Shown here piece by piece: positions 1 through 58,292 of a stretch of DNA of 64,000 nucleotides. Each line of letters opens with the position of its first letter. Positions within the stretch are counted from its first letter, which is position 1. The notes under the pieces are model-generated. The model was not told the origin of the DNA. It did not search any database and saw nothing but the letters and a program-made list of their open reading frames with translations. The DNA comes from an uncultured Muribaculaceae bacterium (GTDB lineage Bacteria > Pseudomonadota > Alphaproteobacteria > Rs-D84), in the NCBI GenBank assembly GCA_964619545.1, contig CAZUED010000003.1, positions 163 through 64,162 on the forward strand, written 5' to 3'. The position numbers and the translations under genes were made by a program.

Positions 1-124
1 TTCGTTCTGGTGATTATTGAGCACCAGCCACCCTCTGATCCATTCCGAACCAGACAGGGAAACGATGTATCGCCGATGGTACTTTGGCTTAAGCCACGGA
101 AGAGTAGGTCGTCGCCAGAACGAA
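1..124 (+). rRNA. rrf: 5S rRNA (distal gene of an rRNA operon lying upstream of the window)
   Basis: nt 1-12 (ttcgttctggtg) pair with 113-124 (cgccagaacgaa) as helix I; conserved 5S strings ccattccgaac and cgccgatggtac...agagtaggtcg present; intrinsic terminator follows. Confidence 0.85.
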
Positions 125-160
125 ATTCATAAAGACATGTAAAGCCGAGACAATGAAATA

Positions 161-187
161 CCGCCCCATTTTTGGGGCGTTTTTTTA
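161..187 (+). terminator. rho-independent terminator after 5S rRNA
   Basis: cgcccc-attttt-ggggcg hairpin followed by a T-run. Confidence 0.7.
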
Positions 188-474
188 TCCGATGTCATTC
201 CTATCACAATAGTTATAAATTTTAGTTATAATTTTTACATGGTTCAAAATAATCCGGACTTAAATTTTCCAAATTATACGGCACAGAATATGCCGCCAAA
301 AAATCCATGTGAAACCTGTTTGTTTTGGGGAATCACATGTAATCAATTAATATGCTCGAATTTCCAAAAATATAAAGAAGATACGAAAAAATTTGCGCTG
401 AGCAATGAAATTTCTCCCTTTAACAATTTATATTGATGTGATATAATCAGATGAAAGTAGAGAAGGGGTTTTTT

Positions 475-2439: not shown

Positions 2440-2460
2440 AGCACAAGGCGTAGATAATAA

Positions 2461-4704: not shown

Positions 4705-4763
4705 AACCCTTGAAAATCGTGTGGTATTTGCTATGCTTTTCCTATTAAAAGGAAGAAAGCATA

Positions 4764-6308
4764 ATGAGTCAAGCATACGCCGTTCTGGCGCGAAAATACC
4801 GCAGTCAAGATTTTGCCAGTCTGATTGGACAGGACGTTCTTGTTAAAACCCTTACTACAGCAATCAATACAGACCGAATCGCGCATGCGTATATTTTTAC
4901 GGGCATTCGTGGAACTGGGAAAACCAGCACCGCTCGCATTCTGGCCAAGGCGCTGAATTGTTTAAGCGCAAATAAAGCAACCGCTGCCCCATGTGGTGTA
5001 TGTGAAAATTGCAAAGCGATTGCTGCCGGTCAGCATATTGATGTTTTGGAAATTGACGCAGCATCGCACACTGGTGTTGATAATATGCGCGACATTTTGG
5101 ATGCAGCCCAGTATCGTCCAACTAATGGCAGATACAAGGTTTACATTATCGACGAAGTGCATATGCTTTCAACCAGTGCATTTAATGCATTATTAAAAAC
5201 TCTGGAAGAGCCGCCCGAGCATGTTATTTTTATTCTGGCGACGACAGAAATACGAAAAGTTCCTGTAACTATTCTTTCCAGATGCCAACGATTTGATCTT
5301 GTACGTGTTTCAGTCGAAACACTTAAGAAACATTTTGCTTGGATTGCCCAGTCGGAAAAAGTGAATTTGACAGATGGTGCAAACGAATTGTTGTCGCGTG
5401 CAGCAGATGGTTCAGTTCGTGATGGTCTGTCTTTATTGGATCAAGCAATTGCGCAAACAGGCGGCAATGTGGATGAGGCTGCAGTGCTGTCCATGTTAAA
5501 ACGCGCGGACCGCGGCGTGGTCGTTGATTTTATGCAGACATTACTGTCGGGCGATGTTGCGGCCGCAATAGACAAGGCGGACTCTTTGTATGCTAATGGC
5601 GCGGATTTATCAATGTTGCTTACTGACATGATGGAATGGACGCACTGGGCGACTCGTATGCACCCCAGCTTGCATGCAGGTGATGCAGCTGCAATTCCAT
5701 ATACGGCTGATCAAAAAGAACAAATAAGAAAAATTAACGAAACGACTAGCCTGAATACTTTGTCGCGCATATGGCAAGTAATGGTTGCCAGTGTACCTGA
5801 AATGCAGACTGCTGGGAATCAAAAGCAATGCTTTGATATGCTGGTTGTTCGTTTAATGCGTGTTGCTGATATGCCGCCCATCAACGAATTAGTAAAGCAA
5901 ACAGCAACGTCTGCACCCCAAGCAAAACAGCAGATACATAAAGTTCCAGCAAAAGACAATGCATTTATAAAAATTTCAACGCCAATTGAACTTTCTGGCG
6001 CCCTTTCTGATGCCAAAGAACCTTTGTTAATGACTCATTGGGCAAATAATGTAGAGGTTGCAGAATTTTCAGATGGGCAAATTAAGTTTTTTGATCGTAA
6101 TGATGATCGTGATTTCCCTACAAAATTGCGTGATTTTTTACGTACCAAAACCGGCAAAGAATGGATTTTGGAAAAGATAGAACCAGAGCAGAAAAATCAG
6201 CCCATGCAAACCCCGACCGAGGCACAGCGCGCAGAACTTGAAGCCGATCCTGTGGTTGCAAACGCGCTGGATTTATTTGCTGGTGCCGAAATTATTTCGG
6301 TAAAATAA
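4764..6308 (+). CDS. dnaX: DNA polymerase III subunit gamma/tau
   Basis: Walker A GIRGTGKTSTARILAKALNC, Zn module CGVCENCKAI, DEVHML, SRCQRF; SD aaggaag upstream. Confidence 0.95.
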   Translation: MSQAYAVLARKYRSQDFASLIGQDVLVKTLTTAINTDRIAHAYIFTGIRGTGKTSTARILAKALNCLSANKATAAPCGVCENCKAIAAGQHIDVLEIDAASHTGVDNMRDILDAAQYRPTNGRYKVYIIDEVHMLSTSAFNALLKTLEEPPEHVIFILATTEIRKVPVTILSRCQRFDLVRVSVETLKKHFAWIAQSEKVNLTDGANELLSRAADGSVRDGLSLLDQAIAQTGGNVDEAAVLSMLKRADRGVVVDFMQTLLSGDVAAAIDKADSLYANGADLSMLLTDMMEWTHWATRMHPSLHAGDAAAIPYTADQKEQIRKINETTSLNTLSRIWQVMVASVPEMQTAGNQKQCFDMLVVRLMRVADMPPINELVKQTATSAPQAKQQIHKVPAKDNAFIKISTPIELSGALSDAKEPLLMTHWANNVEVAEFSDGQIKFFDRNDDRDFPTKLRDFLRTKTGKEWILEKIEPEQKNQPMQTPTEAQRAELEADPVVANALDLFAGAEIISVK

Positions 6309-6318
6309 GGAGAGAAAA

Positions 6319-6777
6319 ATGAGAGAGCAATGCGGACGCAGCCTGATTGAAATGCTTGGAGTGCTGGCCATCGCAGGTGTTATGACCGCTGGTGCAATTG
6401 CTATGTATAACATTGTGCGCACCCGACAGATTCGGATGGTGGCGACCCAAGATATGAAAACAATCGCAAATAATACAAAGCTGTTGTATGCCGCGCGCCG
6501 TGATTATACCGGCATATCCGCAGATTATTTGGTTAAGGCTGGCGCAATGCGCAATGAAAAATCTCCTTTGGCTGGCGCTCAGTTTTCTATTTCTGCAAGT
6601 CCAGGCCCCAAGGAATTCGCAATGGTTTTTGCAGAATTAAATTTTAATGATTGCTCTTGGCTTGCGACGCAGAATTTTGATTGGGCGGACAGAATTAGTG
6701 TGAATGGGTATTTTGAGTCCGCATCGACTTATTGTCGTCAGATGGATAAAAATGAAGTTGCGGTTTGGGTGAAATAA
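6319..6777 (+). CDS. type IV pilin / pseudopilin-like protein
   Basis: N-terminus MREQCG/RSLIEMLGVLAIAGVMTAGAIAMY has a short leader, Gly(-1), Glu(+5) and a hydrophobic alpha1-N; C-terminal Cys pair (DCSW...TYC) fits a pilin D-region; strong SD aaggagag. Confidence 0.7.
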   Translation: MREQCGRSLIEMLGVLAIAGVMTAGAIAMYNIVRTRQIRMVATQDMKTIANNTKLLYAARRDYTGISADYLVKAGAMRNEKSPLAGAQFSISASPGPKEFAMVFAELNFNDCSWLATQNFDWADRISVNGYFESASTYCRQMDKNEVAVWVK

Positions 6778-6826
6778 AAATTAAAGAGCAAAGAGTTCCA
6801 CGGTACATTAATATAAAAGATAAGCT

Positions 6827-7546
6827 ATGAAAGTAAAACTGAAATGTTTTTATAAAACTTCATTTGCAAATTGCTCGTTGCTCTTTTCTCTTTGCGCATT
6901 TTTAAGTGGTTGTGTCACATATCAAACGCCGCCGCGCAATGATTGGCCGATTATTTTACGTGGCGCGACCTTCTCTGAAATGACCGATACTATGAAAATT
7001 GCAAAGCGACCCGTTTTTATTGGTGGTGGTGGAAAAATAATAAACAAAGATGCCGGGCCAGAAAATATAAGTCAATATGGTAAAGAGCCCACGCCAACAG
7101 ACATTAGTCCAGCAGTATTAAAGTATATGGCTTCGCTGGAATATGAGTTATATGATTCTTTATTAAAACCGGGAATCCAGGTTCAGCGCGTGGGCACCGA
7201 TGTTGTTTTATTGCTGACACGTGATTCGTTTATGTATTTGGACGCACCAGAAGTTTCGGATGATGGTGAAGATACATTGAAAATCGTTGCAAAAATACTG
7301 AAAAAATATGATGCTACGTTTATGGAAATTTCGGGTTATACCGATGCAACAATAGACAAGAATGCGGCATCTGCACTTTCGTTGGATATGGCGCAAAGGG
7401 TTGGAATTTTTATGGCAAACCATGATATAAACCCTGCACGTATGTTTATTGTTGGTCGGGGCGCTGCACGTCCTATTGCGGCCCAAGATGATACAGGTCG
7501 GCGCATGAATCGGCGCGTTGAAATCAGATTGTCGCCAGCAAGATAG
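6827..7546 (+). CDS. OmpA-family peptidoglycan-binding lipoprotein
   Basis: lipobox FLSGC; C-terminal OmpA-like domain (ISGYTDAT...ALSLDMAQRV...GRGAARPIA...NRRVEIRL). Confidence 0.8.
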   Translation: MKVKLKCFYKTSFANCSLLFSLCAFLSGCVTYQTPPRNDWPIILRGATFSEMTDTMKIAKRPVFIGGGGKIINKDAGPENISQYGKEPTPTDISPAVLKYMASLEYELYDSLLKPGIQVQRVGTDVVLLLTRDSFMYLDAPEVSDDGEDTLKIVAKILKKYDATFMEISGYTDATIDKNAASALSLDMAQRVGIFMANHDINPARMFIVGRGAARPIAAQDDTGRRMNRRVEIRLSPAR

Positions 7547-7613
7547 CAAATTTTCTGATTGAAATTTATTTTTTATGGATTACAATTAGCAAAGAAAACA
7601 AAAAGGAAGGAAA

Positions 7614-8273
7614 ATGAAAAACCAAAAACCGCTTCCAAAAAAAGCGAAAAACTACAAGAAAATTGGTCTTATCGCTGCTGTGGTTGTCGCCGTGGCTGCA
7701 TTGGGATTTTGGGCTGTTCGGTATTTTACCGCACCGATTTCAATTGAAAAAGCAATCGAGCATGTTTCAACTGAAGCGGTAAGCGGCAGCGACCTGCGTA
7801 TTGCGGTCGTACGTATGGATGCAATTCAGACCCAAGCAAAAGTTTTGGCCGATTTGCATAAACAACGCGAATCTTATGAGAATAAGCTGCGTGATGAATT
7901 GTCAAATCGTCAGAAAGAGCTAGAAAATGAAAAGGCAGAAATAGAAAAATCGCAAGATGTTCTTTCACGTGAAGCTTTACAAAAACGCGTTTCTGATTAT
8001 CAGCAGAAAGTTTCAAAGTTGCAGCAAGATTTGACTACTCGCGCCCAGGCAATAGATGCATCTTTCCAGAAAGCATTGGCCAAGGTACAAAGCGAACATC
8101 TGGATCCGATAATTGACGCTGTTATTACAAAAAAGAACTTGTCATTGGTTATTGATGGCCGTTTGGCTCGCACAGGCGGAGAAATCAAGAATCTGGACAT
8201 TACGGATGACATAGTGATTGCTTTGGATAAAAGAATCCCAAGCGTCAAAATGGAAACTCCAAAAGGGTTCTAA
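7614..8273 (+). CDS. skp: OmpH/Skp-like periplasmic chaperone (membrane-anchored, coiled coil)
   Basis: basic N-terminus plus hydrophobic segment, then long K/E/Q-rich helical region; lies upstream of lpxD-fabZ where skp normally sits; SD aggaagga. Confidence 0.55.
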   Translation: MKNQKPLPKKAKNYKKIGLIAAVVVAVAALGFWAVRYFTAPISIEKAIEHVSTEAVSGSDLRIAVVRMDAIQTQAKVLADLHKQRESYENKLRDELSNRQKELENEKAEIEKSQDVLSREALQKRVSDYQQKVSKLQQDLTTRAQAIDASFQKALAKVQSEHLDPIIDAVITKKNLSLVIDGRLARTGGEIKNLDITDDIVIALDKRIPSVKMETPKGF

Positions 8274-8287
8274 AATAGTTCTGAATT

Positions 8288-8316
8288 AAATCGCCGCAAT
8301 CGCGGCGATTTTTTTA
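8288..8316 (+). terminator. rho-independent terminator after skp-like gene
   Basis: tcgccgc-aatc-gcggcga hairpin plus T-run. Confidence 0.7.
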
Positions 8317-8403
8317 ATATAAAAATGTTTTGTAAAAAACTTTGATTTTGTTGATTTTGCCTTTCTACTTTTGCCTTTTGTTTTTTTGTGTTATAATTCA
8401 CCT

Positions 8404-9147
8404 ATGAAAAAGTTTTTTGCTTCATTGTTTGTTATTAGTTTTTCATTGCTGTTCATGGCGCCTGTGCGTGCATCAGATGCCCCGGATTTCAAGATTTACG
8501 AAGACGTTTCCATAAATAATCAGCCAAAATCCATGCCAGAAATAGAGGAATTATTTCTTAATCCCCGTGCCCAGACAGAAAATCTTTGGGCTGCCGGAAA
8601 AAATTCAATGTTAGAAATTTCTTATACTGGTTGCCCATTTCATACAATTCGTGAATGCCTGATTTGGAAGCGTAAACCAGTAATAATGGAAACAATCCCA
8701 TTGCCAACGCGGCATATTAAAAAAACTGATGATTATCAAACCGCATTGGTAAAAAGGTACGAGGCTCTGATGCAGGCAGCCAGATCTTGTTGCACTGCCG
8801 GCATGGAGAACAAGTTGATAAATTCTGGCGCATCCGCTGGTTTGATTTATAAATTTATGGTTGATGATGCAAACTTTTACGGATTTGGGGATAGATGCTT
8901 GATGATAACAGATGAAGAACTGCAAGAAAACTATTCTGGGACTGCAACCGCAAGGGCGGTGATGGGTGTTCGTGATACATGCCTGTGTCAGCGGCGGGAT
9001 TATTTTGATGCACTACTGGCGCCATTTGACGATTTTCCAGACGAAGAGTATAATTATACTTATCAAGATGGATTGAAGCGCGAGGTAAATGTTTCAATCA
9101 GCAATGATGTACGTGCAGTCAAAGAAATTTTGACACGCTGCCTATAA
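8404..9147 (+). CDS. secreted Cys-containing hypothetical protein
   Basis: ORF 8371-9147; ATG at 8404 gives MKKFFASLFVISFSLLFMAPVRA/SDAP signal peptide; several Cys pairs (SCCTAG, CLCQRR); no family recognised. Confidence 0.65.
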   Translation: MKKFFASLFVISFSLLFMAPVRASDAPDFKIYEDVSINNQPKSMPEIEELFLNPRAQTENLWAAGKNSMLEISYTGCPFHTIRECLIWKRKPVIMETIPLPTRHIKKTDDYQTALVKRYEALMQAARSCCTAGMENKLINSGASAGLIYKFMVDDANFYGFGDRCLMITDEELQENYSGTATARAVMGVRDTCLCQRRDYFDALLAPFDDFPDEEYNYTYQDGLKREVNVSISNDVRAVKEILTRCL

Positions 9148-9215
9148 AAAAGTTAATAATCACTACATTTCCAATAAACTTGCACTGACAATTTCTGTGT
9201 GGTATTATTTCAATC

Positions 9216-10265
9216 ATGAAAAAACTAATACAATTTTTGTTCGGCCAATGTGCTGAAAAAACTACTGCCGGTGCGCTGGCTAAGAAATTTGGCATGGAGC
9301 TGCATGGTAATGCTTCGGTTCCAGTTCGTGGTGTTGCGCCTATTGCGGATGCAAAGCCCGGTGACTTGGCATTCTATTCAACCGAGAGAAATTCCGAAGC
9401 ATTCAAGATTTTACCGATTGAAACATTAAAAAATACCAAGGCATCGGTAATATTGGTACAAAAAGAAAATGTGAAATTTGCCCCAAAATGTGCAACTTTG
9501 CTGCTGACCGACAGCCCTCGCGCAAACATTATAAAAATCATAGGTGAAATTTATAAAGAAAAACCGCGACTGGGTGTTCATTGGGCTGCTAATATAGAGC
9601 ATGGGGTATTTTTCCGTAAACGCCGAAGTGTTTATGTTAGTCAGTTTGCAACTATTGAAAAGGGTGCGGTGATAGAACAGGGGGTGAAAATTTATCCGGG
9701 GGCTTTCATCGGTCGCGGTGTGGTGCTGGGGACTGGAACAATCGTTCATACTGGTGCACATATTGAAAATGCCACCATTGGTGCGAATTGTGTAATTCAC
9801 AGCGGTGCTGTTATTGGCAAGGAAGGATTTGGATATACGCGTCAAAATGGTAAGAATGTATTTATTCCGCACGTTGGTCGCGTGGTTATCGGGGATCGCG
9901 TTTCTGTTGGTGCAAATTCTTGCATAGATCGCGGAATGATGACAGATACAACCATTGGGGCTGGAACAAAGATTGATAACTTGATTCAGATTGCGCATGG
10001 CGTTGTTATAGGTCAAGAGTGTTTTTTAGCCGCAGGCGTTGGTCTGGCCGGTGGGGTTGTAATTGGCGACAGGGCAATGATTGGCGGTCATGTTGGAATT
10101 GCCAATGGTGTTAAAGTTGGTGATGATGCTGAAATAGGCGCGCAAAGTGGTGTTTTTCGCGATATTCCAGCGGGCGAGCGTCATATGGGCTATCCCGCAG
10201 TTCCGGGGATGGAATTTATGCGCGCTCATGCATGGGTCAAGAAAAACATGAGGGATAAGAAATGA
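9216..10265 (+). CDS. lpxD: UDP-3-O-acylglucosamine N-acyltransferase
   Basis: N-terminal LpxD domain plus long left-handed hexapeptide-repeat region; 4-nt overlap with fabZ. Confidence 0.92.
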   Translation: MKKLIQFLFGQCAEKTTAGALAKKFGMELHGNASVPVRGVAPIADAKPGDLAFYSTERNSEAFKILPIETLKNTKASVILVQKENVKFAPKCATLLLTDSPRANIIKIIGEIYKEKPRLGVHWAANIEHGVFFRKRRSVYVSQFATIEKGAVIEQGVKIYPGAFIGRGVVLGTGTIVHTGAHIENATIGANCVIHSGAVIGKEGFGYTRQNGKNVFIPHVGRVVIGDRVSVGANSCIDRGMMTDTTIGAGTKIDNLIQIAHGVVIGQECFLAAGVGLAGGVVIGDRAMIGGHVGIANGVKVGDDAEIGAQSGVFRDIPAGERHMGYPAVPGMEFMRAHAWVKKNMRDKK

Positions 10266-10690
10266 TGGTAGATACAAAGGGTGTAGAAGCTGTAATTCCA
10301 CATCGCGGCAATATGAGATTGGTGGATGAAATTCGCGAATTTAATGAAATCAGTGGTGTTGGTATAAAACATGTCAGGGATGATGAATTTTGGTGTGCCG
10401 GACATTTTCCCGGAAATCCGATAATGCCTGGTGTTTTACAGGTCGAGGCCTTGGCGCAAACTGCATGCTTTATTGTGTTCAAGCAAATGGGTGCAACAGG
10501 TAAGGACACTTTGGGCTATTTTACCACTATGGAAAAAATCAGATTTTCGCACATGGTAAAACCTGGCGATACGCTTGAATTGCATGTAGAAATTTTGGCA
10601 AAAAAATTAAACATGTATAAATTTCATGGAATTGCAATGGTTGGCGGGAAAAAAGTTTCCGAGGCTACATTTTCCGCAATCATGAATTAA
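10262..10690 (+). CDS. fabZ: 3-hydroxyacyl-ACP dehydratase
   Basis: IPHRGNMRLVD and HFPGNPIMPGVLQVEALAQ signature. Confidence 0.95.
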   Translation: MMVDTKGVEAVIPHRGNMRLVDEIREFNEISGVGIKHVRDDEFWCAGHFPGNPIMPGVLQVEALAQTACFIVFKQMGATGKDTLGYFTTMEKIRFSHMVKPGDTLELHVEILAKKLNMYKFHGIAMVGGKKVSEATFSAIMN

Positions 10691-11072
10691 AATCGCTGTA
10701 CGTGCCTTTATCGGCAGTTAAATACTTGTATAAAGCATCGGGCGTCCATATAAATGGCGCCCGAATTTTTAATACGTGTTTTGCGAAAGAAACACAGGTT
10801 ATGTTAGAGCATAAGTTATAGGGCATAACGCATAGATATTTTTTACCTTGTGCCTTATGCTCTAAAAACACCCATCCATTTTGTTCCAGGATTTTTAGGT
10901 CGCGGGTTTGCAGCAGTATAAAGTTTATTTTCCCTGAACCGACTTGTATCATAGTGTATCTATGTCTTATGCCTTTAGCCTTATGCTCTAAAACGATTGC
11001 GCAGTGTCGAAATTTTCGGCAAAAAATGCGTGGCATTATTTTCCTGGTATTATTTGTAAATCCGATAAGCAT
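10680..11072 (-). CDS. hypothetical protein with an internal duplicated (A/W)xxLEHKAxG segment
   Basis: 130-aa ORF convergent with fabZ (11-nt overlap); no family recognised; coding status uncertain. Confidence 0.35.
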   Translation of the reverse strand: MLIGFTNNTRKIMPRIFCRKFRHCAIVLEHKAKGIRHRYTMIQVGSGKINFILLQTRDLKILEQNGWVFLEHKAQGKKYLCVMPYNLCSNITCVSFAKHVLKIRAPFIWTPDALYKYLTADKGTYSDFNS

Positions 11073-11205
11073 GAAAATCTCCGATTTTTATTTAATTTTC
11101 AAAGTGCAATTGTGGTGTCGGCTTCACCGACAACCTATAAATAATTATTTTACCTGTGAGCAACGCGAACACATTAATTGCACATTGCACTTTGCTAATT
11201 GCTCA

Positions 11206-11601
11206 TTAGTTTTCCAGCCATCCTTTGATTTTTGCAGCTTGCGCGATAGTTTGCATTGCATCATTCCACAGGGCAGCTTTGGCATTTTCTGACCATTCAT
11301 GCTGATGTGGAGCGCGCCGCAAGTCTCCAAATTCTTTCAAGACTTCCAGTTGTTTGGGCGTTAGCTTGCCGGCCAGGTAAAGCCGAGTGATAAGAGTTTC
11401 AACATCAATAGCTTCACAAGGATATGGATTTCGTGCCACTGGTCTTCCGATACGCATACGCGCAATGCTGGCAGATGAAAGCGCATCCTTTTGTCGGCAA
11501 GTTAAAAACCAAAACCACATTTGATCGGCGTCTTGAAATTTTCTTTCTGGTGCGTCAAAAGCCGTAGAAGGTATATTTTTTTGTTTTAAGTTGGCGTTCA
11601 T
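11206..11601 (-). CDS. hypothetical protein, possible DNA-binding (LTPKQLEVLKEFG helix)
   Basis: ORF 11206-11616; second ATG at 11601 has a ggagag SD; no confident family assignment. Confidence 0.5.
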   Translation of the reverse strand: MNANLKQKNIPSTAFDAPERKFQDADQMWFWFLTCRQKDALSSASIARMRIGRPVARNPYPCEAIDVETLITRLYLAGKLTPKQLEVLKEFGDLRRAPHQHEWSENAKAALWNDAMQTIAQAAKIKGWLEN

Positions 11602-11739
11602 TTTTTCTCTCTCCATTTTACCCCGTATAATTACTGGGTATGCATTCCTACACTAAAAATAATTGAATTATATCAAATGATACAACTACAAATAGATACT
11701 GCGGTTAGGTTTCTGACATTTTTTGTTTTTTGATAAATT

Positions 11740-11764
11740 AAAAAAATTCGCCACTTGGGCGAAT
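11740..11764 (-). terminator. rho-independent terminator ending the virB8-9-10-P3 operon
   Basis: attcgcc-loop-ggcgaat hairpin followed on the minus strand by a T-run, 27 nt past the P3 stop codon. Confidence 0.7.
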
Positions 11765-11790
11765 CGGAGAATTGTAAATACTAAATAAAA

Positions 11791-13938
11791 TTATCTATCT
11801 TGACCGATTTTGGTAGATGTTCCGGATTTCAGGTTGTCATTGGCTATACGAAGTTGTACTTGGTATGCGTTTATACAATCTGTCATACTGGAATTAGTCA
11901 TAGAATCGCCACATTTTTCAAATTGAGATTCAGATAATTTCAATGTTGTTGACATTCCTTTCAGCAAGTCAGAATCAAATTTAAGCTGCTTTCTGGCATC
12001 TGTTTTATTTGATGCGGAACGTATTACGCTCAAGTTGTTATTCAAGCAAGAAATCATATCTGATGTGCTGTAAACCTCATTACAATCACGAGCACCATTT
12101 AATCTTACATTACCTTTAGAAGATTTGCTTGCACTAGTAGAAGAATCATCAGTAGTATCGCCGCCAGCGGCCTGTAATTTTGATACCAGAATGGATTTCT
12201 CCATCTGAGTCTTTAACCGCTTCATAGTAACGTCCAAAAAGTCATACTGACGTTTCATCTGTTGAGTAATAATTGTCGTTTTCAATGCGATTGTATCCGC
12301 CATCATTTGTTTGTCAGCGGCCGAGGTTGGATTTTTTGTACTTCCAATGTTATAAGCATGGGTGCTGCACAAAGCGATGGCTGAATTGATATAATCATTT
12401 CCGCTGTCTTCTTTGCACCCGTTATCAGCTGTGCCAATGGAAAGAATTGCGTCCAGATTGTTGTTTTTGACACACAGATTGCGATCTGGCAAACGTCTTA
12501 GCTGTGCCAAATTACTTATAACAGCTAACTGATCAGAATTTGTTGCACACCATTTTATTGCGTCGGCTGCAGATTCTTCGCCGCGAATTACACTTGGTGC
12601 GTCCTGGGCAATTATTCTGCGCAAAGTTTCTATATCAATCGTCGATTGCTTTTTGCGATTTTTAAATAACACGGAATTATCAATTGCGTCAGATGCACAT
12701 GCAACGCGAATCCCGCCAGAACTGCCCGCATCCATATCCAGCCAGTTTTGTTGAATGTCCTCTTGATTATTTAACATCTTTAACAAAGTGCAATGGGGCT
12801 GTTGAGATTTTACTCGGCGGTTCCCCTGAGCATCATTTTCGTATGCTATAGGCCAGTATCCGCGGCCGGTTTTTGTATCATAATCGCAAGTTATGCTTGT
12901 CTTATCATCAATTTTTTCAGTTTGATTTTGAGAACATGTCTCGCACATATATTGCCCCCAGACATTGCAAGAGCCATTCAGCATCATGTAAATATCTGTT
13001 ATATCAACGCCCAAAGATTGCGCTAAAACCAACGCATCATACAACTCGTCCAAAACTGCATCATACGGATCAAAGAATTTATTTGCCTTATCCTTGAACG
13101 CTTTGACTCGCCGAGGACCCTGGCAATTATTTCCATTAGAATCACAACGCGCATAATCAAAAACATTTTGCATTGTGTTTTTTAAATCTTTCATCGCAAC
13201 ATCAGAATTTTCAAGCTGGGTCAGTATTTGACCACCAATTTGTTCGCGTGCCAAAACATCTGCCGATACACCCGCATTGACTGCATTAGTAATTGTTTTA
13301 TCGGGTGCTGATGCGCTTGCTGCTTGGGCCGCGGCCTGTGCTTGCTGGGCCGCCAGTTGTTTTTGCTCTTCCAATGCTTGCTGAACAGCCGCGGCGGATT
13401 GAGCAGATTGTTCTTGCATCTGTTGCTGCATCTGCATCATCTGCGCTTGCATTTGTTCTATCTGAGTGTTTGATTGCGCCGCTGCTGCATTTGCAGCCTG
13501 CGTTGTTGCAGCATTTTGCGCCTCGGTTGCTTTTGCAATAGCGGCACTTACCATCTGTGCCGCCAATGTTTGGATTAAATCGTCACCATATTGCTCGCAC
13601 GAAGGATTACTTTTCACGCAACCTTTCACAATCGGAAGCGCCAATTCCATGGTTGTGCAGCCCGCGCACTTTGGCTGGGCGCAACGCAAAATAAGTGAAT
13701 TACAATTTCCAAAATCTGCAACCGGCCTTTGTTGCCCCAGTGGATTAGGGTTTATCGCGGCATTCCACTGATTGTTGTTCAATGCGCCGGCACTGCCGGT
13801 AAATACAGTTCTGTTACCTGAAATTCCGCCAGAATTTGCAAAAGAAGGCCCTGGTCCGCCGATAGGACTGTCGCCATAGGCAGTCCCCAGTGCAAAGCAG
13901 GCGGTACAAACAGATAAAAATCTGATTAAAATCTTCAT
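11791..13938 (-). CDS. secreted cysteine-rich coiled-coil protein P3 (Q/A-rich helix, many Cys pairs)
   Basis: ORF 11791-13998; ATG at 13938 gives MKILIRFLSVCTACFALGTAYG/DSP signal peptide with an agagaga SD; Q/A-rich stretch AQNAATTQAANAAAAQSNTQIEQMQAQMMQMQQQMQEQ; co-directional with and 67 nt after virB10. Confidence 0.8.
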   Translation of the reverse strand: MKILIRFLSVCTACFALGTAYGDSPIGGPGPSFANSGGISGNRTVFTGSAGALNNNQWNAAINPNPLGQQRPVADFGNCNSLILRCAQPKCAGCTTMELALPIVKGCVKSNPSCEQYGDDLIQTLAAQMVSAAIAKATEAQNAATTQAANAAAAQSNTQIEQMQAQMMQMQQQMQEQSAQSAAAVQQALEEQKQLAAQQAQAAAQAASASAPDKTITNAVNAGVSADVLAREQIGGQILTQLENSDVAMKDLKNTMQNVFDYARCDSNGNNCQGPRRVKAFKDKANKFFDPYDAVLDELYDALVLAQSLGVDITDIYMMLNGSCNVWGQYMCETCSQNQTEKIDDKTSITCDYDTKTGRGYWPIAYENDAQGNRRVKSQQPHCTLLKMLNNQEDIQQNWLDMDAGSSGGIRVACASDAIDNSVLFKNRKKQSTIDIETLRRIIAQDAPSVIRGEESAADAIKWCATNSDQLAVISNLAQLRRLPDRNLCVKNNNLDAILSIGTADNGCKEDSGNDYINSAIALCSTHAYNIGSTKNPTSAADKQMMADTIALKTTIITQQMKRQYDFLDVTMKRLKTQMEKSILVSKLQAAGGDTTDDSSTSASKSSKGNVRLNGARDCNEVYSTSDMISCLNNNLSVIRSASNKTDARKQLKFDSDLLKGMSTTLKLSESQFEKCGDSMTNSSMTDCINAYQVQLRIANDNLKSGTSTKIGQDR

Positions 13939-14005
13939 ATTCTCTCTTGAAGCAAGTTTATCATAAAATGCGAGGAAATGCAAGCCTCCCTTTAACAAGT
14001 GGAAG

Positions 14006-16300
14006 CTAAATTATTGGGGGAAAGCAATCACCGCCAGCTGCTGGACAGCAGTTGAATCCTTGGCTACCCATGTCTGTATAAACCTCGCCCGTGCAACAGC
14101 CGTTTAAGTCTGGCGATGTACCATCTTCGCAGGTCAGTGCCGTCGTGGTGGTGGTTGCGGGTGGTGTTTCTTTGGCAAATGGATTTTTTATTGTACCGTC
14201 CGCATTGTATTGCAGGCCCAAAACTTGCTCGTTATATTCTTTTGTTCCCTTAGTTAATTGCTGGCCATTGGTTCCGACAATACCGGTTTGCTGCTGGTTA
14301 TTCCAAATAGCCTGCTGTTGGGCATTATTTATCGCTTGATACTGAATTGCTTTACAATATGCAACAACGGTACGATAGTCATAGCCAGCCTCGGAAATAG
14401 TTTGTGCTGTTACACCCGCACTCAGCTGTCCATTAGTGCCGCAGTATTTCTGTATATCAAATCCGCGAACTTGTCCAACCCATGATGCATCATCATAATT
14501 TGGTATGGCTTCGGACGCTTTATGAGAAACATATTGCGAAGGAGTCAAATTGCAATTTTCAAGCCCATTCACCTTGTCGCAGAAGTTCACAATTAAATCC
14601 TTTGGCGAATAAACCGTTATGCGCGTACCAGCGGCAATAGAAAATGGAGGAACCGTGTTGTCCAGCATATCAACCATTAATTTTTGCGCAACTCTGTTCC
14701 ATGTTGAAATAATTTCATTTTTTGCCAGCTCGGACGAGCGAACTTGACCACTTTGTGTAACCGTATTGTTATCCAGATCAATTTGATTTACGAACTTGTC
14801 TGAAATTGGCGCAATCAAATTAACAGCGGCAGGCACAACTGCCGTTATCATCGGCATTATGAATTGCTCCATATAATCTGTGCTGCCGTGACCTGGAACG
14901 CCAACGCGACCTTGGCTGTCGCCAGCAAAGGGCTCGTCCCCGGCAAAGCTGAATTCAACTCCGTCCGGTCTAACAAAGCGATACCATTTGATTTGCATAC
15001 GACCGATGGCTTTATACGGACCCGGCATTTCACCAGTCAAATAACCCAACATCAATGTTCCGGTCGGAATTATTATAGTGCGTCCGTTATCAGAATAGAC
15101 ATGTCTATCAACTGTTGCCTGAACTGGCAACATGGATTGACGCTCTATCTTTGCATCTGCACGTATTTCATTTACGATTGTCGCAGGAATAGGCTTGTAC
15201 TGGCGCAGAACAAAAGTGCGGTCATAGGGCTCGGTCGATATAAATGCATCGCCCGCAGATGAAGGTACCAGGTTACTTTCTGGTTTATATGCAAATGCTG
15301 GATTTATCTCTGACAAACGTTTTGCACCACCCGCAGCTCTGGGTAATTCTGCCGCTGCTGCATTTACTTGTCTTGCTCGATTTTGTACGCGTGCGTTCGC
15401 CGGATTGGACAATACAGGAACATTCGCGCTTGATGCAATAAATCCGATTCGATCAAAGTCAGAGCCTATTTTTCTGCTGGGATTTTTAAGATCGGTAATA
15501 AATCCGGTATCCAAATTATATTCACCCAGTGGGCTGGTGCAGTCCAAGTCAGAAAAAGGATGAAAAAGATAATGTCCACCTTGGGGACGTATCCATCCGA
15601 TTTGCTTTCCATATGCGTCATAGCCGCCGAATGCAAATTCATAGCAGCGCTCGGTATTTAATGCTGCTGTAGTTACTGGCGCAGGCAAATTTTCTGTTGC
15701 AAATTTTGGCGCAAGGGTTTCGACCGCCTCGGCCACAGGATTAATTTCAGGGGCAGTCAAAACAGGTTCTGGTTCTGGCAATTGCACTGGTTTTTGTGGT
15801 TCTACTTTTTTTGTAGATAAAGCAACAGGAATTTCAGCAGTTTGTGCCATTTTGGCCTCGGCACTGGCGGGGTAATACTCAATAAGTACTTTAATGCCGG
15901 TTGGTTCCAAGTCTGCAGCAGGCGTCCAAGTTAATTCTGCACTGCAAGGAATGCCAAGTGTAATTTCGCCCATATTTGTACAGGTGGTATCTATGCTTAA
16001 TCCATCAATTTTTTGGGATAGTTTTACGCTGGGAATCATTGCGACTGCATTCGAAGAAATTTTAATAGTCTGTGTCTGTTTTTCGCCAACTGGAATGTTT
16101 TGCCATGCGATCTCAGATGGATCCATGGTCAGCTCCAGAACTGGTTTTGATTCGGACTTTGGTTTATCCTTGGAATCGCGACCCATCAGAATAACCAGCA
16201 AAACAACGACTACCAAAAAAGCAGCGAACATCACGATCCACAGCACATGCCGTGGCATGGACTTTTTTACATCGCTGATAGTGGTTGTTATCATCGCCAA
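14006..16300 (-). CDS. virB10: VirB10/TrbI-family T4SS core protein with a ~190-aa Cys-rich C-terminal extension
   Basis: N-terminal TM (VLWIVMFAAFLVVVVLLVILM), Pro-rich linker (VQLPEPEPVLTAPEINP) and TrbI-type domain (LPVQATVDRHVYSDNGRTIIIPTGTLMLGY...GDSQGRVGVPGH...PPFSIAAGTRITVYSPKDL); TTG start with aggag SD. Confidence 0.85.
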   Translation of the reverse strand: MAMITTTISDVKKSMPRHVLWIVMFAAFLVVVVLLVILMGRDSKDKPKSESKPVLELTMDPSEIAWQNIPVGEKQTQTIKISSNAVAMIPSVKLSQKIDGLSIDTTCTNMGEITLGIPCSAELTWTPAADLEPTGIKVLIEYYPASAEAKMAQTAEIPVALSTKKVEPQKPVQLPEPEPVLTAPEINPVAEAVETLAPKFATENLPAPVTTAALNTERCYEFAFGGYDAYGKQIGWIRPQGGHYLFHPFSDLDCTSPLGEYNLDTGFITDLKNPSRKIGSDFDRIGFIASSANVPVLSNPANARVQNRARQVNAAAAELPRAAGGAKRLSEINPAFAYKPESNLVPSSAGDAFISTEPYDRTFVLRQYKPIPATIVNEIRADAKIERQSMLPVQATVDRHVYSDNGRTIIIPTGTLMLGYLTGEMPGPYKAIGRMQIKWYRFVRPDGVEFSFAGDEPFAGDSQGRVGVPGHGSTDYMEQFIMPMITAVVPAAVNLIAPISDKFVNQIDLDNNTVTQSGQVRSSELAKNEIISTWNRVAQKLMVDMLDNTVPPFSIAAGTRITVYSPKDLIVNFCDKVNGLENCNLTPSQYVSHKASEAIPNYDDASWVGQVRGFDIQKYCGTNGQLSAGVTAQTISEAGYDYRTVVAYCKAIQYQAINNAQQQAIWNNQQQTGIVGTNGQQLTKGTKEYNEQVLGLQYNADGTIKNPFAKETPPATTTTTALTCEDGTSPDLNGCCTGEVYTDMGSQGFNCCPAAGGDCFPPII

Positions 16301-16321
16301 CGCAGACTCCTGAGCCTTTTA

Positions 16322-17797
16322 TTATTGAACTCTTACTACATTGCAAGCGGTCCCTTGGAACTTTGTCATTTTATCACAAAGCTTTTGTGCGCTTTCAATG
16401 TCCGACATGGGCCCAATACGCAGGCGATAAAGCCGCGCGGTTGCAGCGCCCGTACCCAGATCTCCAACTCCAGACTCGTCAACTGCGAAATAAACCATAT
16501 TACGATAAGGATTCAGCAGTCCTTGTCCATCATCACCACTGAATTTCGCCAGCAGCTTTGTCCAATAATCATTCAGTGCTTTGACAGAAGTATCGGATTT
16601 CAGCTCAACAGCGACACCTGCTTGATTAGAGGTTATAATTGGAATGTCGCTTTGCGGCAGGAACGAGCCCGCAGTATTGCGAACACTTGGCAGCATATTA
16701 ACGCCAGTCGCACCAGTTGATGCGCCATTTGTCGGCATTACCATCGGCGGTTGAAATCCATTAACCTGTTGGTCAGTGATTGGCTGCAACATTGCACCAG
16801 AATCAACCGGCATATTTCCATAACCAACATTTTGCAAGGATTGTGATGATTGCATGCTTTGCATAACGTTAGATTCAGCCAGTGCCATGACGCTGGAAGT
16901 GTCAGCAATCAAGAAGGGTTTTGCGCGACGCTTGATACAAACAATTCGCTGACCACTGCGCAATACCATATCCCCAACTGCTTCTACAATCAACAGGCGT
17001 CCGTTTTCACCATCAGTACGAAAACCGACTGGCGATTCACCACCTTCGACCAAGATAGAAACAACTGGTCTTTGAGTCATTGCGATAACCTTGTCGCCAA
17101 AATCAATATAGGTAAAGATTCTGTCGCGCCATACGCGTTCAGGCGCAATTACAAAGTCATCAGGATTCGGGACAAAAATGTCTAAATCAAAGCGGAACTC
17201 TGACGGATCAATTTTCATTGTTTTTATCCAGCCGTAATCTTCGCCGTCAACGCCCAAGGTAGAAGTTGAATTTTTCTTTGGGAAAATAGAGTTCATACCA
17301 GAAGTTTGACCAGCAGAAGAGCTGGTTGCATTTGGTATGCTAGAACGCCCATCCAGAACAACATCAACCTGGGAATAAGAAATTTCGCTGGAATTAGCAG
17401 GTTCGGAACGCAGATAGAATAAATATTTATTTCCTGATTTGCCAGTAATAATCAAATTTGTGTCGCTGCCCTGATTTGTTGCAACCGGTGTCATATAAAT
17501 TGTTCTGCCACCTTTTTGCGGATCCATTTGGAACAAACCTTCGTTACCAATGACGCCATCTTCGATAATTTCGCCTTCGGGCAAATTTATCATGGTTACC
17601 ATTCCATTACGCAAACGAATCGGAAGAACTGCGCCTGGCGCCCATGTCAGTTGGGCAAAGCCAGGTTTAGAACTGCCTGTGGCCATATTTGCCTCTGGGT
17701 TATCCCACGCATCCTGGACACCATAATCTTCGGCACTTGCCCCGCCAATACAAAAGGCAAAAATCAAAGGGCAAAGAGCAAATAATTTTATATTCAT
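16322..17797 (-). CDS. virB9: VirB9/TrbG/CagX-family T4SS core protein fused to a C-terminal SPOR-like domain
   Basis: signal peptide; VirB9 N-domain (VLPIRLRNGMVTMINLPEGEIIEDGVIGNEGLFQM...TNLIITGKSGNKYLFYLRS) and C-domain (ERVWRDRIFTYIDFGDK...LVLRSGQRIVCIKRR); SPOR-like tail (YRLRIGPMSDIESAQKLCDKM...CNVVRV). Confidence 0.85.
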   Translation of the reverse strand: MNIKLFALCPLIFAFCIGGASAEDYGVQDAWDNPEANMATGSSKPGFAQLTWAPGAVLPIRLRNGMVTMINLPEGEIIEDGVIGNEGLFQMDPQKGGRTIYMTPVATNQGSDTNLIITGKSGNKYLFYLRSEPANSSEISYSQVDVVLDGRSSIPNATSSSAGQTSGMNSIFPKKNSTSTLGVDGEDYGWIKTMKIDPSEFRFDLDIFVPNPDDFVIAPERVWRDRIFTYIDFGDKVIAMTQRPVVSILVEGGESPVGFRTDGENGRLLIVEAVGDMVLRSGQRIVCIKRRAKPFLIADTSSVMALAESNVMQSMQSSQSLQNVGYGNMPVDSGAMLQPITDQQVNGFQPPMVMPTNGASTGATGVNMLPSVRNTAGSFLPQSDIPIITSNQAGVAVELKSDTSVKALNDYWTKLLAKFSGDDGQGLLNPYRNMVYFAVDESGVGDLGTGAATARLYRLRIGPMSDIESAQKLCDKMTKFQGTACNVVRVQ

Positions 17798-17876
17798 TTC
17801 ACATCCTTCCTAATTTTTTTCTCAAGCGAATTCAGCTGTGACATTTGCCACTTGCCGTTTGCTATTTAAGTTTATG

Positions 17877-18530
17877 CTATTGCATAAAATCGAGCGGATC
17901 ACTTCCCCCTGATTCCACCCGGTATTCCGAGACTTGCAGCCCCAGCGGATTTTCCTGTCTGTTGCCCCATTTCAATTCTGGCGTGTAGGTCAATCCTATT
18001 ACAATAGTAAAATCTTTTGGCGGGGTATGTCCAGCGCTTTCTGATGTGCAAAACCATCTGAATTTTACAGCGAATTTATCACTTCCGCGTGGCTCAATTG
18101 CGGGCGATTGAAACTCTACAGGGCACGAAAACTGAACGTTCGGAGAATCCTGCATGAAAGCAGACCATAACTGAGTTGTTGCAAATCTGGCATAAACCTC
18201 TCTAGATGACCAGATATAAACTGGGCCGTCTGGGCTGCGCCACTTGTACCGCATGGTATTTACATTGGGTGTTATTTCGTTGCGCGCGCGAATATATTCC
18301 TTGATGAAGCTTTCCTTGTAATCGATCATAGTTTTGTTATTTACTGGCAGTTGTTGAATTTCGATTATTTGACCCTCGACACGGCGCGCATTCAGCAAGA
18401 AAACCTGGGTCCTATTCAATGGGAACATGTTAGAGACTGCGAAAATCATGGCCAAAGCAGTTGCAATTGCTGCGGCCAGCACGAAAGACATCATGCGCGC
18501 GGTAAAAGCATTGGGTGTGACAACTGCCAT
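17877..18530 (-). CDS. virB8: VirB8-family T4SS inner-membrane protein
   Basis: short N-tail, one TM (MMSFVLAAAIATALAMIFAV), periplasmic domain with FIKEYIRARNEI and terminal NPLGLQVSEYRV typical of the VirB8 fold. Confidence 0.75.
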   Translation of the reverse strand: MAVVTPNAFTARMMSFVLAAAIATALAMIFAVSNMFPLNRTQVFLLNARRVEGQIIEIQQLPVNNKTMIDYKESFIKEYIRARNEITPNVNTMRYKWRSPDGPVYIWSSREVYARFATTQLWSAFMQDSPNVQFSCPVEFQSPAIEPRGSDKFAVKFRWFCTSESAGHTPPKDFTIVIGLTYTPELKWGNRQENPLGLQVSEYRVESGGSDPLDFMQ

Positions 18531-18729
18531 TTTCTTCAGAATTCTCCCTTCTTTGCGCGATTGTAGTAAATTTCCAGATTACTATGCAAGGGAAAAGTTC
18601 AATTTTCAATTATCAAAGTGCAATTAACGTGTTCGCTGCGCTCACAATTAAATAATTATAAAAGCATCGGTGAATGCCGACACCACAATTGCTAATTGAA
18701 TTTTGTACATTGCACATTAAACTTTTCCC

Positions 18730-18758
18730 TTGCCTTAAAAAAACTAATAGGGTAGAAT
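18730..18758 (+). promoter_or_regulatory. candidate sigma70 promoter for tRNA-Trp/secE/nusG
   Basis: TTGCCT, 17-nt spacer, TAGAAT, about 115 nt upstream of tRNA-Trp. Confidence 0.4.
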
Positions 18759-18873
18759 ACTTTTCGCTTGATTTTGGTAATAAATGTGTTATTGTGCGCG
18801 AACGAAAATAAGATAAACTGGGGTGGAGTTCGCACGATTCCTGCGGTGCAGGCGCGTGGCAGACAAGAGTTTT

Positions 18874-18947
18874 AGGGGCATAGTTCAACGGTAGAATAGA
18901 GGTCTCCAAAACCTTTGGTGTGGGTTCGATTCCTACTGCCCCTGCCA
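18874..18947 (+). tRNA. trnW: tRNA-Trp (anticodon CCA)
   Basis: folded by hand: acceptor AGGGGCA/TGCCCCT, anticodon loop CTCCAAA, T-loop GGTTCGATTCC, encoded CCA end. Confidence 0.9.
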
Positions 18948-19018: not shown

Positions 19019-19198
19019 ATGAAGAAATTTCTTGATTACATCAAAGCAGTTCGCCAGGAATGGTTTAAAATTGTGTGGCCATCACGCGATGCGGTTATTC
19101 GCGCGACCATAATGATTTTGGTGTTTTCAGGACTTGCAGCGCTGTTCTTTTTTATCACCGATAGTGCATTGAATGCGCTGGTGGAGTGGATTTTTTAG
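19019..19198 (+). CDS. secE: preprotein translocase subunit SecE (59 aa, below the ORF-track cutoff)
   Basis: MKKFLDYIKAVRQEWFKIVWPSRDAVIRATIMILVFSGLAALFFFITD... is the conserved SecE motif plus a single TM; canonical position between tRNA-Trp and nusG. Confidence 0.85.
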   Translation: MKKFLDYIKAVRQEWFKIVWPSRDAVIRATIMILVFSGLAALFFFITDSALNALVEWIF

Positions 19199-19244
19199 AA
19201 AATGTGCAATCTGCACATAAAACGAATTGAGTGGAGCAATTATG

Positions 19245-19763
19245 AATTGGTATGTCGTGAATGTTCATACAGGATGCGAGGATAAAGTAGCGCGTGAATT
19301 GCGTGAGCAAATCAATACGCGAAAATTAAATCCTTTATTCGGCGAGATACTGGTACCAACTCGCGAAGTATCCGAGGTAAAGGGCGGCAAACGCGTAAAA
19401 ACGGAAAGAAAATTTTTCCCTGGATATATCGTTGTTCAAATGCAAATGACTAACGAGACTTTTTCGTTGGTAAAGTTGCACCCTCAGGTTGTTATGTTCT
19501 TGGGACAAAAGCAAAAACCTGTAGCGATAACAGAGGATGAAGCCCGCCGTCTGATGAAACAGATGGAAGAGGGTTCGGCAAGTTTGGACGAGTCTGAATA
19601 CGAAGTCGGTCAAGAAATTCACATTATTGATGGTCCATTCATGAACTTTAACGGAATTGCCGCCGAGGTTGATAATTTGAAACAGAAAATGGTTGTGAAC
19701 GTTTTAGTGTTCGGCCGTGAAACCAGCGTCAGCTTAGACTTTAACCAGGTGGAAAAAGTTTAG
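19245..19763 (+). CDS. nusG: transcription termination/antitermination factor NusG
   Basis: MNWYVVNVHTGCEDKV..., KOW region GQEIHIIDGPFMNFNGI; start moved to the ATG at 19245 (ggag SD). Confidence 0.93.
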   Translation, partial: NWYVVNVHTGCEDKVARELREQINTRKLNPLFGEILVPTREVSEVKGGKRVKTERKFFPGYIVVQMQMTNETFSLVKLHPQVVMFLGQKQKPVAITEDEARRLMKQMEEGSASLDESEYEVGQEIHIIDGPFMNFNGIAAEVDNLKQKMVVNVLVFGRETSVSLDFNQVEKV

Positions 19764-22045: not shown

Positions 22046-22087
22046 GCAAAGTGCAAAGTGCAAGTACGCGCTTTGCCTTTGCTTTTG
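22046..22087 (+). terminator. rplL-rpoB intergenic attenuator hairpin
   Basis: 12-bp stem (gcaaagtgcaaag / ctttgcctttgc, one bulge) followed by tttt; matches the known partial terminator position upstream of rpoB. Confidence 0.5.
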
Positions 22088-42958: not shown

Positions 42959-43057
42959 GAACTTTCCTTACTCCGGCAATTTTATATTGTCAAATGGCAA
43001 AAAACAAGTTCTTTTAATCCTTGAAAAGCAAACTATAAATTGCTAGATTGCACAGCG

Positions 43058-46275: not shown

Positions 46276-46283
46276 AAAATTAA

Positions 46284-46934: not shown

Positions 46935-46944
46935 GGGATAAATA

Positions 46945-53047: not shown

Positions 53048-53077
53048 AAAAAACGCGGTGGTTCCCCGCGTTTTTTA
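53046..53077. terminator. bidirectional hairpin terminator at the right edge of the terminase-splitting segment
   Basis: aacgcgg-loop-ccgcgtt flanked by an A-run and a T-run; the stop codon of the terminase N-half lies inside the T-run. Confidence 0.65.
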
Positions 53078-58264: not shown

Positions 58265-58292
58265 AAAAAATCCCGCTTTGCGGGATTTTTTA
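58265..58292 (-). terminator. rho-independent terminator after the KPAAKK-repeat gene
   Basis: tcccgc-ttt-gcggga hairpin with flanking A and T runs, 20 nt past the stop codon. Confidence 0.7.

Follow-up and report, generated by a model that had tools for sequence, protein, structure and literature searches.

Genes of type IV secretion systems (T4SS) are common cargo of integrative elements, and tRNA genes are common sites at which such elements integrate. In Rickettsiales and other reduced alphaproteobacteria, T4SS gene clusters are normally unlinked, and the rvh operon of Rickettsiales runs virB8-virB9-virB10-virB11-virD4. In Helicobacter and Campylobacter, the comB8-comB9-comB10 genes encode the envelope part of a competence T4SS. 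The locus considered here lies in a 64-kb stretch of DNA (referred to as the window, with a G+C content of about 42%) taken from a metagenome-assembled contig of 64,874 bp (contig CAZUED010000003.1 of assembly GCA_964619545.1). In this window, virB8-, virB9- and virB10-like genes form part of an 8-kb block between fabZ and a tRNA-Trp gene. The VirB block is probably a resident chromosomal module of the order Rs-D84 rather than a mobile island; it would provide the core of a divergent T4SS-like machine, with the gain of a gene called P3 and a rearrangement on the fabZ side coming later. Judged by sequence, the module is an undescribed, very divergent T4SS core fixed in a symbiont-like lineage.

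The three genes are intact and strongly constrained, and their products have the domains and topologies of a T4SS scaffold. Each product passes the Pfam gathering cut-off: the VirB10-like protein matches PF03743 at 67 bits (cut-off 35, E = 2.6e-18), the VirB9-like protein matches PF03524 at 77.5 bits (cut-off 34.2, E = 1.6e-21), and the VirB8-like protein matches PF04335 at 52.7 bits (cut-off 23.2, E = 6.6e-14). Orthologues from an Enterousia locus (L012) give the same Pfam matches, including the pairing of CagX/VirB9 and SPOR in VirB9. The VirB8-like protein is predicted to be a bitopic inner-membrane protein. The VirB9-like protein starts with a signal peptide, followed by the CagX/VirB9 domain (residues 49-290) and a C-terminal extension with a weak SPOR match at its end. 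The VirB10-like protein has an N-terminal transmembrane helix, an extension of about 330 aa, the TrbI/VirB10 domain (residues ~365-569) and a C-terminal extension of about 190 aa that closes with a Cys-rich tail. Against the closest relative, dN/dS is 0.053 for VirB9, 0.055 for VirB10 and 0.062 for P3, with 0.038 for dnaX and 0.081 for lpxD. VirB10 orthologues are full-length in 64 loci and VirB8 orthologues are found in 57; identity ranges from 43 to 93% for VirB10 across related genomes and from 62 to 83% for VirB9 across the order.

These loci (numbered L001 onwards) were collected by scanning one genome for each species, the VirB10-like protein serving as query, which returned 64 loci; 20 window proteins were then placed on all of them by tblastn for synteny. 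Most are titled “Alphaproteobacteria bacterium” or “Candidatus Enterousia sp.”, and a few are metagenome-assembled genomes (MAGs) from termite gut titled “Rickettsiales bacterium”. Four record titles (L001, L002, L004 and L062: Muribaculaceae or Clostridia) are at odds with alphaproteobacterial Rs-D84 gene content and probably reflect mis-binned contigs or wrong labels. In the window itself, dnaX is best matched by an alphaproteobacterial model in the Pfam/NCBIfam scan. Candidatus Enterousia is a member of the GTDB order Rs-D84 of uncultured gut alphaproteobacteria, whose genomes are under about 1 Mb, lack respiration and encode few biosynthetic pathways, and whose members are probably obligate symbionts or parasites (PMC12306168). 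The same report, the one published genome analysis of the order that the literature search turned up, mentions membrane proteins, left unidentified, that possibly mediate cell-cell interaction in Rs-D84, and mentions no secretion system (PMC12306168). A literature search on RF32, Rs-D84 or Enterousia combined with type IV secretion found no earlier description.

On the tRNA side the arrangement is invariant. All 55 loci that cover both sides read rpoB-rplL-rplJ-rplA-rplK-nusG-secE-tRNA-Trp and then, divergently, virB8-virB9-virB10, and this holds down to a VirB10 identity of 43%. The tRNA-Trp gene occupies the same place in 15 of 15 scanned loci that cover the interval, and tRNA-Trp 8-mers are present in 55 of 55. 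Past virB10, the next gene is s136 in 53 loci, and s130 comes after s136 in 47; in about 36 loci the convergent downstream flank consists of yidC, lspA, a kefB-type antiporter, ksgA, recR, a SPOR-tailed D-Ala-D-Ala carboxypeptidase (dacC) and pyk. Given that virB8-9-10 sit beside tRNA-Trp/secE/nusG in every one of these loci, and between housekeeping blocks in most, the module is older than the diversification of the sampled order. A five-gene unit, virB8-virB9 (SPOR-tailed)-virB10 (extended)-s136-s130, is set divergently beside tRNA-Trp-secE-nusG throughout Rs-D84 and was there before the order diversified. A preliminary description of the window had proposed that the VirB-like operon may sit in an inserted or rearranged segment, and had named indistinguishable composition together with an ancestral arrangement as evidence to the contrary. 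The proposal survives in part: the fabZ flank is rearranged and P3 was gained, while insertion at tRNA-Trp fails because the tRNA-Trp/virB8 junction is shared throughout and is ancestral.

The fabZ side is a different matter. There, fabZ-lpxD adjoins s130 only in the window's clade (L001, L004, L005 and L007, with L006 and L063 as further inversions of the same pieces), and the gap between s130 and fabZ is 4-17 nt in the closest relatives, or the genes overlap; in the window their convergent 3′ ends overlap by 11 nt. On this distribution, the fabZ-side junction is a rearrangement confined to the window's clade. P3 likewise lies beside virB10 only in close relatives of the window (L001, L002, L004, L005, L007 and L063) and, as the loci compare, was gained between virB10 and s136 in this clade. 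The gene joins two parts, P3a (residues 1-523) and P3b (524-735), which are fused in the window and L002 and are separate open reading frames (ORFs) in L001, L004, L005, L007 and L063, where P3b has its own signal peptide. Two later events in the window's clade account for this layout. First, the secreted Cys-rich pair P3a and P3b entered between virB10 and s136; second, and after P3, a convergent dnaX-ompA-skp-orf258-lpxD-fabZ block replaced the yidC-side flank. As a separate observation, orf258 (8371-9147), which encodes a protein with nine Cys between skp and lpxD, occurs only in the window's clade and not at the Enterousia-type skp-lpxD junction.

The same loci bear on the position of lpxA. 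The preliminary description had reported that lpxD-fabZ is not followed by lpxA and that, from the end of fabZ at 10690, six minus-strand genes run up to the tRNA-Trp/secE/nusG block. Both statements hold. The ORF listing and the Pfam/NCBIfam scans reproduce the gene order, and the plus-strand ORFs within the 8-kb block are short and nested; domain scans of ORFs of at least 110 aa (nearly all the non-nested ones) find no lpxA or lpxB in the window, and a tblastn search of the 1.27 Mb of sequence examined, with LpxA and LpxB of E. coli as queries, matched the lpxD paralogue and nothing else. Its further suggestion, that an accessory block stands in place of lpxA, has to be given up. When lpxD neighbourhoods of more distant members were collected with LpxD homologues, lpxA was directly after fabZ in none of the nine lpxD loci that carry fabZ (two more, L067 and L068, have no fabZ). 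On a 340-kb Enterousia-like contig, the VirB module lies at ~74-96 kb and dnaX-orf151-ompA-skp-lpxD-fabZ at ~173-178 kb, about 90 kb apart, and what comes after fabZ is a 73-aa ORF, then nth and ileS, with no lpxA there. The dnaX-ompA-skp-lpxD-fabZ block also occurs without a VirB neighbour in L065 and L066. Because the fabZ-lpxA link is lost in every examined lpxD locus of the order, even with the module far off, its loss is independent of the VirB module, and we infer that the absence of lpxA after fabZ is older than the VirB/fabZ juxtaposition.

Another set of genes touches this neighbourhood. In the Enterousia-like loci L011 and L026, virB10 is followed, without s136 or s130, by a gene for a 1058-1163-aa protein, an ORF of about 320 aa and five further ORFs. 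Compared by layout only, this set equals in number, order and size the one upstream of dnaX-ompA-skp-lpxD-fabZ in L065 and L066 (positions 1-6000), in which the 318-aa gene encodes a rluD-like pseudouridine synthase. Should the two sets prove identical, the VirB module would have come to lie with the dnaX-lpxD neighbourhood more than once, in different orientations.

How might such a module work? VirB8 (inner membrane), VirB9 (periplasm/outer membrane) and VirB10 (both membranes) would assemble into a core that spans the envelope, part of a very divergent T4SS-like machine, and the SPOR-like tail of VirB9 would tether that core to peptidoglycan. Genes for the ATPases, if they exist, and for the channel components would lie elsewhere in the genome, as they do in other reduced alphaproteobacteria. 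The machine would probably serve interaction with a partner cell, through delivery of effectors or toxins or through uptake of macromolecules or DNA; members of Rs-D84 depend on other cells for their metabolism. Of the accessory products, s130 could modify the cell wall or lipids, or else be a substrate; s136 may be the unit's regulator; and P3, in the window's clade, would be secreted or displayed at the surface and made from the same transcript as the core. A bolder version is a long shot: that all Rs-D84 carry a stripped-down T4SS core fixed in the chromosome (VirB8, a SPOR-anchored VirB9 and an extended VirB10), inherited together with a permuted-papain hydrolase and a small regulator, without linked ATPases (possibly with no VirB4, VirB11 or VirD4 at all), as a conduit for taking macromolecules from partner cells or for attaching to them.

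Several observations count against a resident T4SS core. First, the NCBIfam equivalog cut-offs are far from reached (59 vs 220 bits for VirB10, 47 vs 218 for VirB9 and 18 vs 188 for VirB8). Second, solved T4SS proteins are matched weakly, with E-values from 1e-7 to 0.05: the nearest solved sequences are CagY (1e-7), Xanthomonas VirB10 (1e-4) and ComB10 (PDB 2bhv, 3e-3) for the VirB10-like protein and TrwF (8e-4) for the VirB9-like protein, and the VirB8-like protein matches VirB8 and TrwG in the PDB at 0.05. The SPOR (peptidoglycan-binding) match of VirB9, at 4.9e-4, falls slightly below the Pfam cut-off. Third, the 64-kb window and, in about 60 genomes, the sequence up to 10 kb from the module contain no gene for VirB4, VirB11, VirD4, VirB6, VirB2/3 or VirB7, and VirB5 likewise is missing from the window and from beside the module (the search covered window ORFs and module flanks annotated by Pfam or grouped by similarity); for this reason a complete secretion machine is undemonstrated. 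Fourth, s136 and s130 are gone from several genomes (L011, L013, L026, L037 and L044) and so are not obligatory parts. Finally, the relatives were picked by a VirB10 search, so that members of the order without the module would go unseen.

Other functions are less likely. The trio might be the envelope part of a ComB-like competence system that scavenges DNA or nucleotides for bacteria unable to make them, an unlikely reading but one to keep in view. The operon has the same three genes as comB8-10 with the ATPases unlinked, ComB10 is among the weak matches (its NCBIfam model scores 48 bits against the VirB10-like protein, with an equivalog cut-off of 300 and E = 7.9e-13), and nucleotide biosynthesis and type IV pili are reported to be missing from Rs-D84 genomes (PMC12306168). 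ComB10 is nevertheless matched less well than VirB10 and CagY, and the sequences examined contain no comB2/3/4/6 or comEC homologue and nothing specific to DNA uptake.

A repurposed or relic scaffold is decidedly unlikely. On this account, the VirB-like trio would be a peptidoglycan-anchored trans-envelope tether or an outer-membrane structure with no T4SS ATPases and no secretion channel. Such a role would suit the lack of an ATPase or VirB6 gene within 10 kb, the unusual SPOR-like tail of VirB9, the long extensions of VirB10, the distance of all three proteins from the equivalog thresholds, and the envelope genes that surround the module (ompA-family, skp and lpxD here; yidC, lspA and dacC-SPOR elsewhere). 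Yet strong purifying selection on full-length proteins fits an active T4SS equally, and scattered T4SS clusters are what reduced alphaproteobacteria such as Rickettsiales normally have.

By comparison with these, arrival of the VirB-like operon as a genomic island, through site-specific integration at tRNA-Trp that displaced lpxA, is very improbable. The idea draws on the favoured insertion target and usual cargo described above, on a ~95-nt inverted element that brackets the block, and on P3, which is truly a clade-specific addition. The composition of the block is nevertheless native: its tetranucleotide distance is exceeded by 31% of equal-sized control segments, its G+C content is 43.4% vs 42.1%, GC3 and codon usage of P3, VirB10, VirB9 and VirB8 are like those of bamA and rpoB, and composition is uniform across the fabZ/s130 junction. 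The dN/dS values are native as well. No integrase, recombinase, relaxase or transposase domain is found by Pfam/NCBIfam in any ORF between 451 and 22032, and blastn-short with tRNA-Trp finds no partial copy in the window (the longest other match, 10 nt, is at chance level). An Rfam scan of 9-23 kb at E<=1 returns tRNA-Trp and nothing else. The 11-nt convergent overlap of fabZ and s130 leaves no room for an attachment scar, and among the 55 loci covering the site, which were chosen by a VirB10 search, none is an empty site. Added to this are the constant tRNA-side junction, fabZ without lpxA even where the module is distant, and the absence of the bracketing repeat from 36 other genomes. The preliminary description had itself cautioned that, with no flanking direct repeats and no integrase found, mobility was unsupported; the repeat search, Pfam scans and native composition agree. 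Two of the checks it proposed also went against an island, the block being indistinguishable from its flanks in composition and the search for a tRNA-Trp duplication yielding no fragment. As for a chimeric join at the fabZ/s130 junction, the source is a MAG contig and several related records have implausible titles (Muribaculaceae, Clostridia), but this is barely credible since the junction recurs in L001, L004, L005 and L007, which were assembled independently in different projects, and composition is even across it.

The inverted element just mentioned has two copies, el1 and el2 (Table 1), and is partly palindromic and rich in hairpins. Three inverted matches run collinearly between the copies (26 nt at 96%, 19 nt at 95% and 18 nt at 94%), and the local-alignment z-score is 22.7 vs shuffles. 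They were not recovered from related loci by blastn-short. A within-genome pair at both positions occurs in 2 of 38 genomes, the window and L007, the latter with a different sequence (7546-7572 and 16492-16518); the 36 other tested genomes have no pair, and their s136-s130 spacer is 20-240 nt, mostly under 90. As att sites or an island boundary the elements were rejected, being inverted rather than direct, partly palindromic and missing from those 36 genomes. Instead, they are possibly lineage-specific intergenic elements, such as terminator or operator cassettes. The presence of unrelated hairpin repeats at the same two sites in the window and L007 might stem from a regulatory cassette evolving in concert or from small mobile repeats inserting there by chance. 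A promoter-like site is at 18609-18581 (minus strand), and the virB8/tRNA-Trp intergenic region, in which el2 lies, probably holds the promoter. A GTGCAA(A/T)GTGCAA motif is also present upstream of rpoB (22047-22063). At the other end, the hairpin just past P3 probably ends the virB8-virB9-virB10-P3 transcript, and because it comes after P3, P3 is probably co-transcribed with virB8-10 in the window's clade.

The products of the remaining genes in the block are less easily placed: P3, s130 and s136 match nothing in Pfam, NCBIfam, PHROG or PDB profile searches (with a threshold of E<=0.01 for s130 in Pfam, NCBIfam and PHROG). P3 contains 24 Cys, and its true start is likely the ATG at 13938, which would yield the signal peptide MKILIRFLSVCTACFALGTAYG. 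Its family comprises 347 representative clusters (50% identity) at E<=1e-3, with copies elsewhere in unrelated contexts and not beside VirB genes; one copy adjoins an o662 homologue and PagL (L070), and the PagL gene there suggests that lipid A is produced. For s130, a papain-like fold is predicted in which the catalytic His comes before the Cys in the sequence, both conserved, and the predicted function is that of a cysteine hydrolase or acyltransferase of the permuted papain-like type (NlpC/P60, YiiX/TseH-like). It differs from YiiX/Peptidase C92, the type VI secretion effector TseH and the MARTX RID acyltransferase in having no sequence-level match in Pfam, NCBIfam or the PDB, a much smaller size (a core of ~115 aa) and no signal peptide. 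The s136 gene is kept directly downstream of virB10 across the order, and its product may, on weak evidence, be a sigma-region-4/Q-like transcription factor; a Foldseek comparison of the s136 model with the PDB gave nothing significant. In L001, the closest relative, about 50 codons are repeated in tandem within the s136 orthologue (6738-7295), whose product is 182 aa long vs ~130.

Secreted cysteine-rich proteins are also encoded at the start of the window. There, o662 and o747 (451-4704) are tandem paralogues (BLASTP 1e-11) that resemble P3 in style, with a signal peptide, an S/T/A-rich linker and a C-x6-C-x4-C motif. P3 was considered as a paralogue of this pair and the idea was dropped, as no significant BLASTP or jackhmmer link was found and only the C-x6-C-x4-C motif and general style are common to both. 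An o662 homologue lies directly downstream of s130 in L022 and beside the P3 homologue and PagL in L070, and the P3 and o662/o747 families seem to travel around the genome together.

Table 1. Coordinates of the features in and around the VirB block (positions in the window)
Feature	Position	Strand	Description
skp(ompH)-orf258-lpxD-fabZ	7614..10690	+	tail of the dnaX-orf152-ompA-skp-lpxD-fabZ block, kept as a unit in the order
lpxD	9216-10265	+	ORF listing and Pfam/NCBIfam
fabZ	10262-10690	+	ORF listing and Pfam/NCBIfam
s130	10680-11072	-	small cytoplasmic protein; predicted permuted papain-like hydrolase/acyltransferase
el1	11090-11200	.	hairpin-rich, partly palindromic intergenic element between s136 and s130; inverted copy of el2
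s136	11206-11616	-	small four-helix protein
terminator-like hairpin	11745..11765	-	8-bp stem then TTTTTAATTT; just past the P3 stop codon
P3	11791-13998	-	secreted cysteine-rich protein with a Q/A-rich coiled-coil stretch
VirB10-like	14006-16300	-	764 aa; PF03743
VirB9-like	16322-17797	-	491 aa; PF03524
VirB8-like	17877-18530	-	217 aa; PF04335; first gene of the operon
el2	18586-18733	.	41-nt inverted-repeat arms (18586-18626 and 18693-18733) around a copy of the el1 core
tRNA-Trp (CCA)	18874-18947	+	Rfam 66.5 bits; intact; opens the conserved tRNA-Trp-secE-nusG-rplKAJL-rpoBC block
secE	19019-19198	+	ORF listing and Pfam/NCBIfam
nusG	19227-19763	+	followed by rplK (L11), rplA (L1), rplJ (L10), rplL (L7/L12) and rpoB

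Well away from the VirB block, the minus strand between 48820 and 59575 carries a T7-like phage-derived gene set. The terminase is represented by a C-terminal half (48820-49656) and an N-terminal half (53075-53731), and between them lie dnaB (49727-51268) and a double-HTH (helix-turn-helix) gene (51372-52388). The set also includes a tail tube gene (56315-56842), a major capsid gene (PF19821, 57189-58004) and a scaffold gene (PF05396, 58877-59575); it may be what is left of a prophage, an element domesticated to form particles, or the outcome of a rearrangement. Between the capsid and scaffold genes sits a 162-aa K/A-rich ORF (58312-58800) that matches the histone H1-like HC2 family (PF07382), and about 17 tandem copies of a 15-nt unit (58259-58750) fall within it.

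The break in synteny that drew attention to this locus is ordinary: it comes from rearrangement in a fast-shuffling reduced genome, not from gene transfer. The constrained, order-wide VirB8-9-10 module is a concrete candidate for the cell-cell interaction machinery of Rs-D84, and the locus could be used as a marker for the order. Further candidates, for surface or effector proteins, are the two large families of secreted cysteine-rich proteins to which P3 and o662 belong.

The window can be compared with two kinds of described arrangement. The first is the canonical rseP-bamA-skp-lpxD-fabZ-lpxA-lpxB cluster (E. coli b0176-b0182). Like that cluster, the window has skp, lpxD and fabZ adjacent and co-oriented, and it also has the uppS-cdsA-rseP and bamA neighbours, at 40.5-45.4 kb; unlike it, the cluster is broken twice, with bamA (43040-45364) not before skp and fabZ not before lpxA-lpxB. 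Downstream of bamA, in place of skp-lpxD, are genes for three envelope proteins (45583-47805) that may form a second T4SS-related cluster with VirB8 paralogues. One of them, orf230, gives a sub-threshold Pfam VirB8 match (5e-4) and was negative against the window VirB8 by BLASTP and hhalign; another, orf216, aligns with a profile of the module's VirB8 orthologues at an hhalign probability of 56% (E 1e-4, 132 columns); the third, orf286, carries a signal peptide.

The second comparison is with T4SS themselves. The ComB operons of Helicobacter and Campylobacter resemble the module in that they consist of B8, B9 and B10 homologues only, with the rest elsewhere, and in the weak ComB10 matches; they differ in that no comB6 or comB7 lies upstream of the module's virB8 and in the gap between the ComB10 score and its cut-off. 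With type IVA systems (Agrobacterium VirB, R388 Trw, Xanthomonas X-T4SS and Helicobacter Cag), the module shares the B8-B9-B10 order, the Pfam domains and the predicted topologies. In contrast to them, the module has no VirB1-7, VirB11 or VirD4 gene next to it and lacks a gene for the VirB7 lipoprotein; its VirB9 has a ~200-aa tail with a SPOR-like end, and its VirB10 is about twice the usual length, with extensions recalling those of CagY but far smaller. Moreover, the module occupies a fixed chromosomal site beside secE-nusG and not a plasmid, an integrative and conjugative element or a pathogenicity island. The rvh system of Rickettsiales differs in what follows virB10, which here is P3 or s136-s130 and never virB11/virD4 in about 60 genomes. 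In its broader setting, however, rvh is similar: like the module, which may have extra VirB8-like paralogues (orf216 and orf230), it is a chromosomal, vertically inherited and scattered gene set in reduced, host-dependent Alphaproteobacteria.

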